DNA from: a virus
Reading direction: 5' to 3' (one strand)
UHGV virus genome: UHGV-1364246
DNA length: 39,893 nt
The notes under the pieces are model-generated. The model was not told the DNA's origin. It made no database searches and saw only the letters and a list, made by a program, of their open reading frames with translations. This document shows, one piece after another, positions 5,308-14,086 of the stretch (position 1 is its first letter; the number at the start of each line of letters is the position of its first letter). The translations under genes and the position numbers were made by a program.

Positions 5308-5368
5308 CTTGAATCTCCTCTTTAAGTTAAGACTAAAGTCTATCTTATAGTCATATCTTAGGTCCTAA

Positions 5369-7104: not shown

Positions 7105-9272
7105 TAGTGACACTCCTTCCACGTTGGTCCAATCTTACCTTCGGTATCAAGGACACATTTAAAGTTATAGAACTCACCCACCTTACGCATAGCAAGTTGA
7201 GCAATCCTGCGAATATCTTCGGCAATCTCCATGTTCCGAGCTGCAATCTGCAATTCGTCGTGGACCCATGCCATGTACGCAAAGTCTCCTTCCCAGCCGT
7301 GGACATACCCGGCCTCTTCGAGCATACGTTCAGTCTCTACAATCCAGTGCTTACAGACTACCGCACCATCGCCCTGAAGTAATGCGTTCAGTGCTGAGTG
7401 TGGAGACCGTATGTGGATACGTCGACCATCAAGTCCACGCAACCAACGGCGTTTCCACTTAACGATGTTCTCACCATCTACCCACTTAGAGTCTGATATT
7501 AACGTATTACTCACAGCTTCCCTGAGGTCCTTGATGGCTGGTGTACCCTCAATGAATTTCTTCATGAGAGCTGAACCTTCCTTCTTACCACCGCCGACTA
7601 TCAGTCCAATCTTAGCGGCCCCTGCACCATACAGGAACGCATAGATGAACGTCTTAGCGTTGTTGCGGAAAGCATCATGGTCGTGGCTCGACTTATCGCG
7701 TGGGACGTTAGGTGCTAACCCAGCGTTGACTGCGTTTGCCCAGTGGATGTCACCTTCGACTACAGTCTTCGCATATGCACCACCATCAAACGGAGCCGCT
7801 CGGTTCCCTAGACAACGAAGCTCAAGACCTGAAGCATCCACGCCTACTTGAATCCAAGGGTCTGGCTTGCCATCCTTCTTGTTCCACGCTGCACCGAAAG
7901 CACCACGGCAAGTCTCACCATATGGAGCACCGTTAGCCGGGACCTGAGCCATGTTTGGTGAGCTATGGGTCGCACGTCCTGTTACTGCACCACAAGGGTT
8001 GATTGAACCGTGCATACGTCCGTCTGGACCCACAAGTTTCAACCATGCGTTCTTACCTTCAGCAGCCTGACCGATGCGCTTCTGGACCACAAGATACTCA
8101 CGGACCAACTCTACACAAGCCTGAGCCTCTGCGTCTGGTAACTTAACGTGTTCTAACGTCTCGTCATCGACTACAGGTTTCCCAGTGTCAGTGAAGTCCA
8201 CAGGCTCCCAACCACGCTCCATCAGGACTTTCGCTAAGTGGTCTCCGCTTCCCGGATTAAATTCAACGTAAGTGATTGGCGTGAATGGTGCTCCCTCCAT
8301 CGTGTCTCGCGTATCGAGTTCACAAGGTTCGAGACCTAATCGTTGAGCTTTGTTCTTCGGCTTCTTAAAGATGCCACCGACCTTAGGATACACGACCCTC
8401 GGATACTTCGGAAGGTCCTTACCTGTCCGTGGATGCCTGAAGAACTCCTTGCCTCCCTTTGGTGCATACCAGCTACCGAAAGTAGAGCGCAGCTTGTCCA
8501 GTAACTCCGCACGTTTGACAGTGAGTTCACGATATAAGCCTTCGACCATCTCGGTGTTCATCGGATAGCCGTTACGCTCCATCTTCGCACAGGTCCACGC
8601 AGCATCATGTTCCAGACGCAACGCATAAATCTGTTCGAAAGCGAACTGTTCAGACTGGAAGTAATACTTGTCAGTCAGGAACTTCTTGAACAATGCCAGT
8701 GTGACCACAACGTCCTGAACGTTATAGTCCAGCATCTCCTGAGACGGGAACAACCATTCGTCCCCAGCCTTATATTCGATACCTTCGGCCTTGCACTTGG
8801 CAACGTAATCGTGTTTGTACTCACCCTTCATCTCACCGAGACGATAGCCCCAAGCCTCAAGAGACTGGCGTCCCATCATCTTAGGCGGCAGACGTCCAGC
8901 TTTCACCGCGCCTATGTCTGAGAACTTAATGTTGGGATACATCAAGCGGCCCAGCACCAAGGTATCAATCATCTTGTGTTTCGGGAAGTTAAATCGTTTC
9001 CCAAAGTACAGACGTTTCAGCTTGTCAATAGCCGGGACGTCATAGTTGATACCATTGTGGAATACCAGCATACCATCAGGTGATGCGGCAATCTCTTCCA
9101 CTTTATGAACATACTCTTTGAAGCCACCGACGATACCAACCATCGGAGCTACCCCATACTTAAGGGTCTCATTCGACTCGGCGTTAATCAGGACCCCGCA
9201 GTGGAACTGGGAGACTGTATCAAGGAGACCGTTGGTCTCGATGTCAGACCCATATACGTTACTTAAGTCCAT
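7104..9272 (-). CDS. DNA polymerase (gp5-like, family A with 3'-5' exonuclease)
   Basis: 722 aa; MDLSNVYGSDIETNGLL... exo motif; syntenic; size close to T7 gp5. Confidence 0.92.
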   Translation of the reverse strand: MDLSNVYGSDIETNGLLDTVSQFHCGVLINAESNETLKYGVAPMVGIVGGFKEYVHKVEEIAASPDGMLVFHNGINYDVPAIDKLKRLYFGKRFNFPKHKMIDTLVLGRLMYPNIKFSDIGAVKAGRLPPKMMGRQSLEAWGYRLGEMKGEYKHDYVAKCKAEGIEYKAGDEWLFPSQEMLDYNVQDVVVTLALFKKFLTDKYYFQSEQFAFEQIYALRLEHDAAWTCAKMERNGYPMNTEMVEGLYRELTVKRAELLDKLRSTFGSWYAPKGGKEFFRHPRTGKDLPKYPRVVYPKVGGIFKKPKNKAQRLGLEPCELDTRDTMEGAPFTPITYVEFNPGSGDHLAKVLMERGWEPVDFTDTGKPVVDDETLEHVKLPDAEAQACVELVREYLVVQKRIGQAAEGKNAWLKLVGPDGRMHGSINPCGAVTGRATHSSPNMAQVPANGAPYGETCRGAFGAAWNKKDGKPDPWIQVGVDASGLELRCLGNRAAPFDGGAYAKTVVEGDIHWANAVNAGLAPNVPRDKSSHDHDAFRNNAKTFIYAFLYGAGAAKIGLIVGGGKKEGSALMKKFIEGTPAIKDLREAVSNTLISDSKWVDGENIVKWKRRWLRGLDGRRIHIRSPHSALNALLQGDGAVVCKHWIVETERMLEEAGYVHGWEGDFAYMAWVHDELQIAARNMEIAEDIRRIAQLAMRKVGEFYNFKCVLDTEGKIGPTWKECH

Positions 9273-9664
9273 GTTTCTCCTCCAATTGCTCTAGCCAGTG
9301 TGCGGTGACCCACTCCATACTTCTTACCTAAGGAGCGGTGAGTCCAGCCACCTCCTGCGTAAAGCACCTTGGCCTCTTGTACTATTTCAGGTGTAAGCTT
9401 ATAGCTTCCATGTCGCACGCCTTTAGCGGTTCGACCTCTAACGTCTCTATCGTGATTGTTCTCAGCCCTTGTCCCCAGCTCCAAGTGTTCTGGATTGTAG
9501 CACGCTGGGTTGTCGCATTTGTGCCTCACGACCATTCCCTCTGGTATCGGACCATTCGCCTCCTCGAAGGCTATCAGATGCAGTCTACGGACCTTCCCGT
9601 TGACCTTTCGCATACCGTAGCCGAAACTATCTCGACACCCGGTCCACTCAATGCAATCAAACAT
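9263..9664 (-). CDS. HNH endonuclease
   Basis: ATG at 9662-9664 with GGAGGA upstream; GPIPEGMVVRHKCDNPACYNPEHLELGTRAENN HNH motif. The ORF-track start at 9700 is an extension. Confidence 0.7.
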   Translation of the reverse strand: MFDCIEWTGCRDSFGYGMRKVNGKVRRLHLIAFEEANGPIPEGMVVRHKCDNPACYNPEHLELGTRAENNHDRDVRGRTAKGVRHGSYKLTPEIVQEAKVLYAGGGWTHRSLGKKYGVGHRTLARAIGGETWT

Positions 9665-9680
9665 GGTTAATCCTCCGTTT

Positions 9681-9727
9681 AGTCTAATCATAAAGGCCAC
9701 TCGCTGTGAATGACCTTGAGTCTAGAC
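9681..9727 (-). ncRNA. RNase III processing element (R4.7-like)
   Basis: Conserved ~45-nt element ATCATAAAGGCCAC-N10-ATGACCTTGAGTCTA (plus sense), shared with 17041-17089 and 26086-26139; resembles recalled T7 R-site motif GACTCAAGGTC...GTGGCCTTTATG. Confidence 0.6.
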
Positions 9728-9910
9728 CTAGAAGTCTGTACGCAAGAAGTGGTACATGAACTTACGGTTAGCCTTCTTCCATGCCTTAGAGTCGAACCTC
9801 TGTTCTCCTAGAATGTTTGACAGGAAGGTTGCTTCATCGCTCCACCATTTGTACATGAACCGATGGTATCGAGCTTTAAGTTTCTTTAACACTAGAATGG
9901 AACCCTCCAT
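9728..9910 (-). CDS. Small hypothetical protein (gp4.3/4.5 position)
   Basis: 60 aa ORF with ATG start directly after the primase-helicase gene; weak SD. Confidence 0.35.
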   Translation of the reverse strand: MEGSILVLKKLKARYHRFMYKWWSDEATFLSNILGEQRFDSKAWKKANRKFMYHFLRTDF

Positions 9911-9925
9911 TTATACTTCTCGTAA

Positions 9926-11629
<1,704 letters not shown>

Positions 11630-11676
11630 TCACTCCTTAATCACAAATGCGAACAAAGGGACAGGACTCACGGTCC

Positions 11677-11699
11677 AATCCCTAAGGTGATAGTTTAGG
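11677..11699 (-). promoter_or_regulatory. Variant phage RNAP promoter (phi4-like), CCTTAGGG instead of CTATAGGG
   Basis: Minus-sense CTAAACTATCACCTTAGGGATT; overlaps the stop codon of the 71-aa gene. Confidence 0.55.
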
Positions 11700-11910
11700 C
11701 TTTAAAGAACTGAGACAACTGGTCAGCCTTGGTATCAGCCTGACGCGCCCTCATGCCAGCTTCCAGTGACGCGATGGTCAGCTTGTCAGCCAGAGCAGCA
11801 GCATCAGCCGCACCGTCAGCAGTCTTCTCTGCTACCTTTCGTTCCATAACCGCAGCACGACGATAACCCCGCACCACCAGACGACCAAGAAATTCGATAA
11901 GTTTAATCAT
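11695..11910 (-). CDS. Hypothetical 71-aa protein between lysozyme and primase-helicase
   Basis: ATG at 11908-11910 with AAGGAGA upstream; Ala/Lys/Arg-rich, probably helical. Confidence 0.5.
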   Translation of the reverse strand: MIKLIEFLGRLVVRGYRRAAVMERKVAEKTADGAADAAALADKLTIASLEAGMRARQADTKADQLSQFFKA

Positions 11911-11934
11911 TGAGTTGTTCTCCTTTAGAGTTTA

Positions 11935-12393
11935 TTAACCGTGGTCGGAAGTTACCAGTTCGTTGGTAGACAGCCAGCGTTGTAAGTCGAAACTTGGACA
12001 CGCCTTTGGTGCTACGTCATGGTGTGCTTTGATTTCTGCCTGAGGATACAGGACCTTCAGGTCGGCCAGCTTGTTGCGCAGGGAGTTCATCTGGGCCGGA
12101 GTGAAGTTAGCTTCAAACTTGCCCTTAGCGTCAATTCCACCTACAAGGCAGACGCCTACAGACCGTGAGTTCCAGTCCTTAACGTGCGACCCTACGACAT
12201 TGACCGGGCGGCCCTCTTCCACAGCACCATCTCGCTTGATGATAAAGTGGTAGCCTACGTCCAGCCAGCCTTGCTGTTTATGCCACATACGGATGGTCTC
12301 TACCCCGATGTCCATCTCTGGCTTGGTAGCCGAACAGTGAACGAAGATAGCGTCAGTCCGGGACCGTGGGTTGAACTGTACCTTACTTACCAT
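11935..12393 (-). CDS. Lysozyme / N-acetylmuramoyl-L-alanine amidase (gp3.5-like, RNAP inhibitor in T7)
   Basis: 152 aa; DAIFVHCSATKP...WLDVGYHFIIKRDG...GVCLVGGIDAKGKF...HHDVAPKACPSFDL...NELVTSD nearly collinear with recalled T7 lysozyme. Confidence 0.92.
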   Translation of the reverse strand: MVSKVQFNPRSRTDAIFVHCSATKPEMDIGVETIRMWHKQQGWLDVGYHFIIKRDGAVEEGRPVNVVGSHVKDWNSRSVGVCLVGGIDAKGKFEANFTPAQMNSLRNKLADLKVLYPQAEIKAHHDVAPKACPSFDLQRWLSTNELVTSDHG

Positions 12394-12874
12394 TGTACAC
12401 CACCAATTCTACGACCACCAGATTCAGGTGCTGGGTGAAGCGCTGTGCATCCGTGGTGTGCATCTGGAGGCGCTTATGGTTGAAGACGTGTGAGTTGCTA
12501 ATCTTCACGTAAACTTCGTCAGGCTTGCCGTGGACGATGAACGTCTGGCCTACACCAATCTTGTCGATTGTCAGGACCTCACGCTTCACAGTCACAGGCG
12601 GTACGCTCGAAGCTGGCAGGACTTGAGTGGTCTGTACACCAGTGAGTTTCTCTTCCGGCTTGATTTCCTCAAGTTCATGAGCATAGACCCATGCTCCCCA
12701 CATACCATCAGGCTGAGTATCATACCCGGCCGAACCATGCTTAAACGTACCGGGAGTTGTGGACTCTACGAGTACATAGTCCATGGATGGCCACTGGTCT
12801 TGCTCACACTTAGTAACGATAGTCCCACGAGGCCAGCCACACGTAGCTACTGACAGTTTAAACTTCTTGCTCAT
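12383..12874 (-). CDS. Hypothetical 163-aa protein inserted between endonuclease I and lysozyme (no T7 counterpart)
   Basis: ATG overlaps the gp3 stop (ATGA); its 3' end overlaps the gp3.5 start by 11 nt; SD AAAGGAG upstream. Confidence 0.6.
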   Translation of the reverse strand: MSKKFKLSVATCGWPRGTIVTKCEQDQWPSMDYVLVESTTPGTFKHGSAGYDTQPDGMWGAWVYAHELEEIKPEEKLTGVQTTQVLPASSVPPVTVKREVLTIDKIGVGQTFIVHGKPDEVYVKISNSHVFNHKRLQMHTTDAQRFTQHLNLVVVELVVYNGK

Positions 12875-13326
12875 TTCTTAACTCCTTTCTTCTTGGGGAT
12901 GAGTATACCTGAAGGCAGACGTACAGTCGACTCTCGAAGCCACTCAACCGGAATGAATTTATCGGCATACTTATAGCCGTTCTTTTCGCACCATGCGCCA
13001 TACGTGGTTGGAGACCCTTTGTATAACTTGGAGCGTGAACTTGAGAACACGAACCGGATGTCTAACTCTGGGTGCTGTTCTCGTACCAGAAGGTGCTTCT
13101 TACGGTCATCACTATCGAAGATACCTTTGGTCTCCACGATGATGCCGTTGGGAAGGATAAAGTCTGGTGTGTACTTGTGGTCGGAAGCCGGAATCACATA
13201 GTTGATATAATGGCTTTCGTACTCCGCTTTGACGCCGTTCTGTTCCAGCCACTGCTGGTTCTTGGCTTCAAGTCCAGAGCGGTAGGCACCCACAGAGTGC
13301 CCCCGTTTTGCAGACCATTGGGCCAT
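12871..13326 (-). CDS. Endonuclease I (gp3-like Holliday junction resolvase)
   Basis: 151 aa; syntenic between SSB and lysozyme; PDF...ETKG core typical of T7 endonuclease I. Confidence 0.85.
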   Translation of the reverse strand: MAQWSAKRGHSVGAYRSGLEAKNQQWLEQNGVKAEYESHYINYVIPASDHKYTPDFILPNGIIVETKGIFDSDDRKKHLLVREQHPELDIRFVFSSSRSKLYKGSPTTYGAWCEKNGYKYADKFIPVEWLRESTVRLPSGILIPKKKGVKK

Positions 13327-14024
13327 TAGAAGTCGTAATCGCCACCAGAGCCGGAGTCGTCACCACCTTCGGAACCATCGTCACCGAAGTCATCAGACCC
13401 GAAGTCACCATCGGTTGACGCTTTGTAGCCAGTACCAAGGTCTTCATCATCACCCCAGCCACCATCGCCACCAGCACCATCGCCCTTCCACTCCTTCAGT
13501 TCTACCAGAAGGCAGGACTCAAGCTGGAGCTTAACGCTTGCACCAGTCGCAGCGTTCCACTTGAACGGCAGGACTTTGAACTTGACCTTCAGCTTAGACC
13601 CAGCGCCAATATTCGGGACGTCACGGATGAGTTTAGCATCAGTGTCGTAGAACCGTAATACGATAGGCTCGGACTTGCCGTCTTTCAGGTAAGACGCAAA
13701 GCATTTAAACTTCAGGGTAACAGTACCGTCACCGTTCTCAATCCACGGCATATCGCCTTCACGCGGCTCGATAGGCTTCTTGCCACGCTGAACCTGAGGT
13801 GGGTTCTTCTCGTGGTCTGCGAGTGCTTTCGCATACGCATCGTCGTGAATCTTCTGTAAGACATCGATCATCTTACGGACCTTCGGGTCATCAAGACTGA
13901 AAGTCAGGTTAACCTTATGCTCACCACGCTCGTTAAACTTGGTGTCTGCTTTGTTCAGCCATGCGTAAGGCTCAACGATACCAGCTACCGGAGTGGTGAA
14001 AGTCTTCAGTTGCTCTTTAGCCAT
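13326..14024 (-). CDS. Single-stranded DNA-binding protein (gp2.5-like)
   Basis: 232 aa (same as T7 gp2.5); acidic C-terminal tail ending DYDF. Confidence 0.88.
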   Translation of the reverse strand: MAKEQLKTFTTPVAGIVEPYAWLNKADTKFNERGEHKVNLTFSLDDPKVRKMIDVLQKIHDDAYAKALADHEKNPPQVQRGKKPIEPREGDMPWIENGDGTVTLKFKCFASYLKDGKSEPIVLRFYDTDAKLIRDVPNIGAGSKLKVKFKVLPFKWNAATGASVKLQLESCLLVELKEWKGDGAGGDGGWGDDEDLGTGYKASTDGDFGSDDFGDDGSEGGDDSGSGGDYDF

Positions 14025-14063: not shown

Positions 14064-14086
14064 CTGTCCTACAGTGATAGTTTAGG
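14064..14086 (-). promoter_or_regulatory. Phage RNAP promoter (phi2.5-like), CTGTAGG variant
   Basis: Minus-sense CTAAACTATCACTGTAGGACAG; overlaps the gp2 stop codon. Confidence 0.65.

Follow-up and report, generated by a model that had tools for sequence, protein, structure and literature searches.

A putative phi3.8-type promoter with a CTTA unwinding segment and a gp4.3-like gene at the gene 3.7/gene 4 junction of a K1F-type phage

The DNA analysed here, referred to as the window, is the virus genome UHGV-1364246 with a length of 39,893 nucleotides. It represents a complete, permuted genome whose minus strand carries all genes. Over the segment 11000..12500, the window shares 95-96.6% (about 96%) identity with a large number of Kayfunavirus genomes, among them K1F, EcoDS1 and Vec13 (223 records). 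Judged by its sequence, the window is the genome of a Kayfunavirus, a T7-like phage resembling K1F and EcoDS1. Read along the minus strand, the genes for gp2.5 (13326..14024), gp3 (12871..13326), gp3.2 (12383..12874) and the gp3.5 amidase (11935..12393; Amidase_2 match) are followed by an ORF of 71 amino acids (11695..11910, stop codon included), which was assigned to gene 3.7 by its identity to K1F gp3.7. A Shine-Dalgarno sequence AAGGAG (11920..11925, assigned by sequence) is located 9 nt 5' of its ATG at 11910. Next come a putative phage-RNAP promoter (11677..11699; -17 to +6), the positional equivalent of phi3.8 of T3 and T7, and a hairpin (11657..11683) that starts at -1 and is the counterpart of R3.8. 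The 16-nt string TCCCTTTGTTCGCATT (11646..11661) consists of the same letters that follow phi3.8/R3.8 in T7. A further Shine-Dalgarno sequence AAGGAG (11633..11638, likewise assigned by sequence) belongs to gene 4 (9926..11626), an ORF of 566 amino acids that is annotated as gp4 or primase/helicase in the relatives.

Downstream of gene 4, between the ORF named gp4.3 by position and gene 5, the window contains an HNH endonuclease ORF of 145 amino acids (9263..9700, minus strand; Pfam HNH_3, E 1.8e-17), which overlaps the start of gene 5 by 10 nt. In EcoDS1 this ORF is missing and gp4.3 is directly followed by gp5; the HNH ORF is probably a mobile homing-endonuclease insertion. Some relatives have an extra insert upstream of gene 4, after the R3.8-like hairpin, which is the position of gene 3.8 in T7. 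The Vec13-like insert comprises about 190 bp with an ORF of 59 amino acids (L011 1485..1664; also present in L009 and L012), and ST31 and PM129 contain another insert that is unlike the Vec13-like one.

The 23-bp promoter on the minus strand (11677..11699) reads CCTAAACTATCACCTTAGGGATT, with the +1 G at 11682, the -4 C at 11686 and the -3 T at 11685. Across the junction the minus strand reads ...TTTAAAGCC-TAA-ACTATCACCTTAGGGATTGGACCGTGAGTCCTGTCCCTTTGTTCGCATTTGTGATTAAGGAGTGACCAATG. The TAA at 11695..11697, which corresponds to positions -15 to -13 of the promoter, is the in-frame stop codon of the 71-residue ORF. Thus, the variant promoter ahead of gene 4 that encloses the stop codon of the preceding gene, as described in the initial annotation, is present. 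Its recognition element CTAAACTATCAC (about -17/-16 to -5) agrees with the consensus without a mismatch. The unwinding segment from -4 to -1 is CTTA vs TATA; three of these four positions are still A or T, and the GGG start is kept. A chance occurrence of the element is not plausible, because the recognition 9-mer AACTATCAC occurs 10 times in the window, on the minus strand only, vs an expected number of 0.37. In EcoDS1 (EU734172), the identical sequence at 11107..11129 carries a promoter annotation. Furthermore, the synteny is that of T3 and T7: the promoter is placed between gene 3.5 and gene 4 and is followed by an R3.8-type hairpin. A scan for sigma-70 promoters and terminators gave none on the coding strand. 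The element is thus best described as a predicted class II promoter of the phage RNAP, equivalent to phi3.8, that would be used in vivo.

A search with the consensus CTAAACTATCACTATAGGRA identified 11 good promoter sites in the window, all of them on the minus strand. They match the 11 annotated phage promoters of EcoDS1 one-to-one and in the same order. The gene-4 promoter is the sole one of the 11 that lacks a T at -4 and the sole one with a T at -3; the other ten contain a T at -4 and an A or a G at -3. The statement that CTATAGGG is otherwise invariant does not hold, however: phi2.5 has CTGTAGGA, and six of the ten other promoters have GGA and not GGG. In phi2.5 (14066..14085, minus strand), the melting element is CACTGTAGGA owing to an A>G change at -3, and phi1.6 has an A>G change at -12. 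Core deviations are limited to phi1.6, phi2.5 and the gene-4 promoter, i.e. to early and middle promoters, and in T7 it is likewise the class II promoters that deviate in the core. Between phi2.5 and phi6.5 (8.7 kb), the gene-4 promoter is the only phage promoter, whereas T7 has four in this interval. A degenerate promoter-like sequence, CTAAGATATGACTATAAGAT (5342..5361, minus strand), has five mismatches and is located 9 nt downstream of the 20-mer core of phi6.5.

The placement of a stop codon inside a promoter recurs in the window at phi2.5 (gp2, 58 aa), phi9 (gp8, 522 aa) and phi17 (gp16, 1295 aa), as had been claimed. The annotation of EcoDS1 contains the same 5-nt overlaps between genes and promoters. 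In T7, position 9092 is the end of gene 2, and the -17 and +1 of phi2.5 are at 9090 and 9107; the TAA at -17 to -15 is therefore the stop codon. T3 shows a like overlap of gene 2 with phi2.5 and of gene 3.7 with phi3.8. By sequence comparison, enclosed stop codons are a general form of compaction among phages of the T7 group and not specific to the gene-4 site.

In EcoDS1 and K1F, the same 20-mer CTAAACTATCACCTTAGGGA likewise lies between genes 3.7 and 4, with the same hairpin after it. EcoDS1 differs from the window by a G instead of a T at +6 and by a frameshifted gene 3.7. In T3 and T7, phi3.8 is also a class II promoter with a hairpin directly behind it, which begins within the -4 to -1 region and has a 5-nt loop. 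T3 moreover has a small gene 3.7, whose stop codon overlaps the promoter, and gene 4 comes directly next, whereas in T7 the HNH gene 3.8 is inserted between hairpin and gene 4. The T3 gp3.7 (35 aa) shares the map position between the lysozyme gene 3.5 and the promoter, but it is Cys-rich, half as long and without a Pfam match. It was rejected as a homologue of the gp3.7 from the window, as BLASTP detected no similarity (E 2.3). The positions deviating from the consensus are -13, -12, -11 and -2 in phi3.8 of T7, -10 in phi3.8 of T3, and -4 and -3 in the window. Three genera thus have in common that gene 4 is preceded by a promoter deviating from consensus, and each arrived at it by different substitutions.

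In order to assess the conservation of the CTTA segment, IMG/VR was scanned with the pattern ACTATCACNNNNGGGAT..GAC.....GTC, in which positions -4 to -1 were left free. Among the 18 loci found, 17 contained CTTA, one CTAA, and none TATA. Altogether, CTTA was found at -4 to -1 in 35 relative loci and CTAA in one; TATA was found in none. The complete 20-mer CTAAACTATCACCTTAGGGA is identical in 18 relative loci, namely those of EcoDS1, K1F, 12 IMG/VR contigs and four more distant GenBank genomes. Identity of the 20-mer extends even to Dev2-, RDN8.1- and vB_EclP_26-like phages, in which the identity of gp3.7 is as low as about 52-68%. When 24 distinct sequences were aligned, the diversity was zero from -16 to +5 except for one change at -2, and the coding sequence beside the promoter was far more diverse. 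Decay would not give rise to such invariance, which argues that the promoter element is under selection in exactly its CTTA form.

The strength of the promoter was judged from its fit to the other promoters and from published data on T7. In a leave-one-out PWM analysis, the gene-4 promoter had the lowest score of the 11 (25.0 bits, vs 28.7-36.1 bits for the others); phi2.5 scored 28.7, phi1.6 29.9, and the remainder 31-36 bits. According to a review (PMC11617373), positions -4 to -1 constitute the melting element, initiation is affected by substitutions at these positions, and promoters of class II are the weaker ones. In vitro, 7847 variants of the T7 promoter were assayed with T7 RNAP by Komura et al. 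2018 (PMC5937735). According to the S2 file of this study, the T7 promoter variant that has both changes of the gene-4 promoter, TAATACGACTCACCTTAGG, yielded an RNA/DNA ratio of 3.63, compared with 169 +/- 19 for the wild type (mean of five barcodes). This corresponds to about 2%, a value that refers to T7 RNAP, a linear template and one barcode. In the same file, ratios of 10.9 and 6.9 are listed for -4C paired with a near-neutral change further upstream; for -3T together with the neutral -13T the ratio is 29.3, and for the T3-like -2A it is 138-161. Single -4C, -3T and -3G mutants were absent among the S2 rows compared, so that double mutants with a near-neutral second change were used in their place. 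By analogy to the about 2% activity of the T7 double mutant, and in agreement with the lowest PWM score, the expectation of the initial annotation that the substitution weakens the promoter is supported, and it is plausible to assume that the gene-4 promoter is weak also with the K1F-type polymerase. Melting-region defects of T7 promoters are milder on supercoiled DNA. We infer that most RNA of genes 4-6 probably originates from read-through of upstream promoters.

Alternatively, CTTA might not be weak for the K1F-type RNAP, but tolerated or even preferred, so that the element would be the main promoter of genes 4-6; the hairpin that begins with GGGAU at +1 or supercoiling could compensate for the altered segment. 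This would suit the isolated position of the promoter, which stands alone in the 8.7-kb interval from phi2.5 to phi6.5 where T7 has four, and its GGG at +1 to +3, which is also found in the strongest late promoters. A K1F-type enzyme that uses CTTA well would likewise be compatible with the perfect, genus-wide conservation of the 20-mer. However, T at -4 and A or G at -3 are present in all ten other promoters of the same phage, with T7 RNAP this double change reduces the output about 50-fold, and the equivalent phi3.8 of T7 also deviates from its consensus TAATACGACTCACTATAGGGAGA, namely at four positions. We therefore consider a fully active CTTA promoter improbable and retain the weak promoter as the preferred interpretation.

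The hairpin (11657..11683) has the sequence A-GGGAUUGGAC-CGUGA-GUCCUGUCCC-U, with 11 stem positions and the 5-nt loop CGUGA. It dominates the MFE structure of all four leaders that were folded (window, K1F-type, T7 and T3), each of which has a 5-nt loop. Among 12 distinct Kayfunavirus versions, 97.7% of the stem cells are paired. The Dev2 clade shows one compensatory exchange between a GC and an AU pair (GGAC/GUCC to AGAC/GUCU); as this is a single pair in one clade and probably one event, the support from covariation is modest. Due to its T at +6, the window has a U.U mismatch in the stem, which is fully paired in most relatives, where +6 is a G. A lower stem AUCAC/GUGAU, which is part of the MFE structure of the window, was rejected, because its 3' arm changes in relatives without compensation. 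The idea that CTTA lengthens the RNase III stem, in the way the A at -2 lengthens it in phi3.8 of T7, was also rejected: pairing by hand indicated that TATA would pair no less well with the UUUG downstream.

In T3, the corresponding site is annotated as the RNase III recognition site R3.8, which overlaps with phi3.8. Promoter and hairpin are arranged alike in T7, and the 16 nt TCCCTTTGTTCGCATT after the T7 loop are those of the window; the stem sequences differ between the genera. Position, architecture and the shared TCCCTTTGTTCGCATT indicate that the module of promoter and hairpin is homologous to phi3.8/R3.8 of T7 and T3. A scan of 11500..12000 against Rfam gave no matching model. RNase III sites of T7 typically consist of a two-tier stem with an internal loop and about 20 bp in total. 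Here, only the upper stem of 11 bp is supported, which is short for an RNase III substrate. For T7 and T3, cleavage by RNase III is documented by annotation and literature; in this genus the site is a predicted one. The hairpin is thus a candidate counterpart of the R3.8-type RNase III site, at which the transcript would be cleaved.

Conservation in the alignment of the 24 sequences is as high for the hairpin and for TTTGTTCGCATT downstream of it as for the promoter. This degree of conservation, the sharing of these features with T7 and the annotation of the T3 hairpin as an RNase III site would also be in agreement with an element that no longer is a promoter and is conserved as a signal for RNA processing or stability together with the translation initiation region of gene 4. 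In that case, however, a dead promoter should have drifted as the adjoining coding sequence did, whereas positions -16 to -5 are invariant and have exactly the bases by which the other promoters are recognized. These positions moreover lack a conserved RNA pairing partner, since the AUCAC/GUGAU stem is broken in several relatives. The loss of the promoter function is therefore very unlikely, and the reading as a promoter joined to a processing hairpin is maintained.

The 71-residue ORF that ends in the promoter is K1F gp3.7, to which it is 91% identical. The gp3.7 family is narrow, comprising 79 clusters exclusively from phages of the K1F type. The reading frame is intact in 22 of the 24 distinct sequences, and the nucleotide diversity at codon positions 1, 2 and 3 is 0.19, 0.17 and 0.32, respectively, with the first 26 codons being most constrained. 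As judged from the kept frame and the excess of third-position changes, gene 3.7 is a real gene. In gene 3.7 of EcoDS1 (L001 3817..3912), a 1-nt insertion represents either a sequencing error or a real inactivation; due to this frameshift, gp3.7 is annotated there with 31 aa, and its stop codon falls short of the promoter. One IMG/VR relative (L013) has a premature stop at codon 67, and several database entries of the family are truncated. Being frameshifted or truncated in some relatives, gene 3.7 is probably dispensable. An AF2 model of gp3.7 consists of one continuous helix (residues 2-70, pLDDT 94.8). A Foldseek search with this model against BFVD gave no match, as expected for a single helix, and PADLOC gave no match for gp3.7 either.

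It had been stated that the 71-residue protein has no obvious counterpart in T7. Homology searches refute this and identify T7 gp4.3. The family phrog_1950 comprises the protein of the window (91 bits, E 1.2e-25), T7 gp4.3 (108 bits) and T3 gp4.3 (106 bits). In an alignment of the gp3.7 and gp4.3 families by means of hhalign, the probability was 97.7% (E 1.3e-12) over 70 gap-free columns, and BLASTP of gp3.7 against T7 gp4.3 gave 38% identity (E 1e-7). The Pfam family DUF5471 (PF17565) is the T7 gp4.3 family, scoring 169 bits for T7 gp4.3 and 57.6 bits for T3 gp4.3. It aligns with gp3.7 over positions 1-69 of 70 (E 3.5e-4), although the score of 21.3 bits is below the gathering threshold of 25 bits, and it matches 23 of 26 members of the gp3.7 family (best E 3.7e-5). 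In tblastn searches, gene 4.3 was the sole match of gp3.7 in the 2.5-5 region of T7 and the 71-residue ORF the sole match of T7 gp4.3 in the window, which thus has no second gp4.3-like copy. By sequence, gp3.7 is homologous to T7 gp4.3. Both comprise 70-71 aa, are all-helical (by prediction in the case of gp3.7), begin with M[FI]KLIxxLGxLxV, end with QLxxFF, and are encoded by accessory genes of the class II region, that of T7 being non-essential and gene 3.7 probably dispensable. In contrast, their identity is only about 33-38%, and the map positions differ: the gp3.7 gene is located upstream of gene 4, T7 4.3 downstream and behind its own phi4.3. The K1F/EcoDS1 ORF called gp4.3 (60 aa; 9728..9910, minus strand) belongs to phrog_13039, has no Pfam match and is unrelated to T7 gp4.3.

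The HNH gene 3.8 of T7 had been named as the occupant of the same place. This assignment fails, because T7 3.8 lies downstream of phi3.8 and the 71-residue ORF upstream of the promoter; gene 3.8 is therefore not the positional equivalent of gene 3.7, and no HNH match was found in the 71-residue protein with Pfam. That the ORF is an orphan replacing T7 3.8 might be suggested by the lack of a named product in most GenBank records, by the lack of precomputed Pfam domains in family members and by the score under the Pfam cut-off, but given the common PHROG with T7 and T3 gp4.3, the gap-free hhalign result, the BLASTP and DUF5471 matches and the location of T7 3.8 on the opposite side of the promoter, this notion can practically be dismissed.

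T7 gp4.3 is non-essential (PMC12664982). According to a preprint, T7 without gp4.3 shows a reduction in plating by about 70% when the host carries the defence system RADAR2, and the protein structurally resembles the ATPase inhibitor IF1 (PMC11482910). This provides a weak lead for an anti-RADAR role of T7 gp4.3 and, by analogy, for the function that gp3.7 may have.

Taken together, the junction likely corresponds to the gene 3.7/gene 4 boundary of a K1F-type phage, at which a weak phi3.8-type promoter, a hairpin and a gp4.3-like gene are combined. Gene 3.7 encodes an accessory protein of about 70 aa, predicted to be a single helix, which is a homologue of T7 gp4.3; in this genus, its gene is placed before gene 4. 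The stop codon of gene 3.7 lies in the first bases of a promoter with a perfect recognition half and the unwinding segment CTTA. The replacement of TATA by CTTA is expected to lower open-complex formation and initiation; with fewer initiation events, the promoter would make only a modest early addition to the transcription of genes 4-6, atop the read-through from upstream. In the read-through RNA the hairpin may serve as counterpart of an RNase III processing site, and in RNA started at the gene-4 promoter it would form a 5' stem-loop.

A more far-reaching interpretation, which we regard as rather unlikely, is that the fixation of CTTA represents a selected regulatory setting and not a tolerated decay, the promoter being especially dependent on supercoiling or especially sensitive to inhibition by the gp3.5 lysozyme, which is encoded just upstream. 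If true, transcription of the replication genes from the only promoter of genes 4-6 would be throttled or shut off on schedule. Separately, and at the same low level of confidence, gp3.7 might be a helical counter-defence protein like T7 gp4.3, which would make it a small helical protein of the anti-RADAR or ATPase-inhibitor type.

The finding as such is ordinary and essentially known, since a close relative already carries the promoter annotation, gene 3.7 has a name, and PHROGs groups its product with gp4.3. Beyond annotation it adds little; of mild interest are the genus-wide melting-region variant and the positional gene names. With its invariant CTTA, the promoter provides a natural example of a conserved melting-region variant, and it could be used as a low-strength part for orthogonal polymerases of the K1F type. 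The names gp3.7 and gp4.3 are positional in K1F-like phages and misleading, as K1F gp3.7 is the homologue of T7 gp4.3. Any function of T7 gp4.3, for example the proposed anti-RADAR activity, should therefore be sought in the gp3.7 proteins of this genus.
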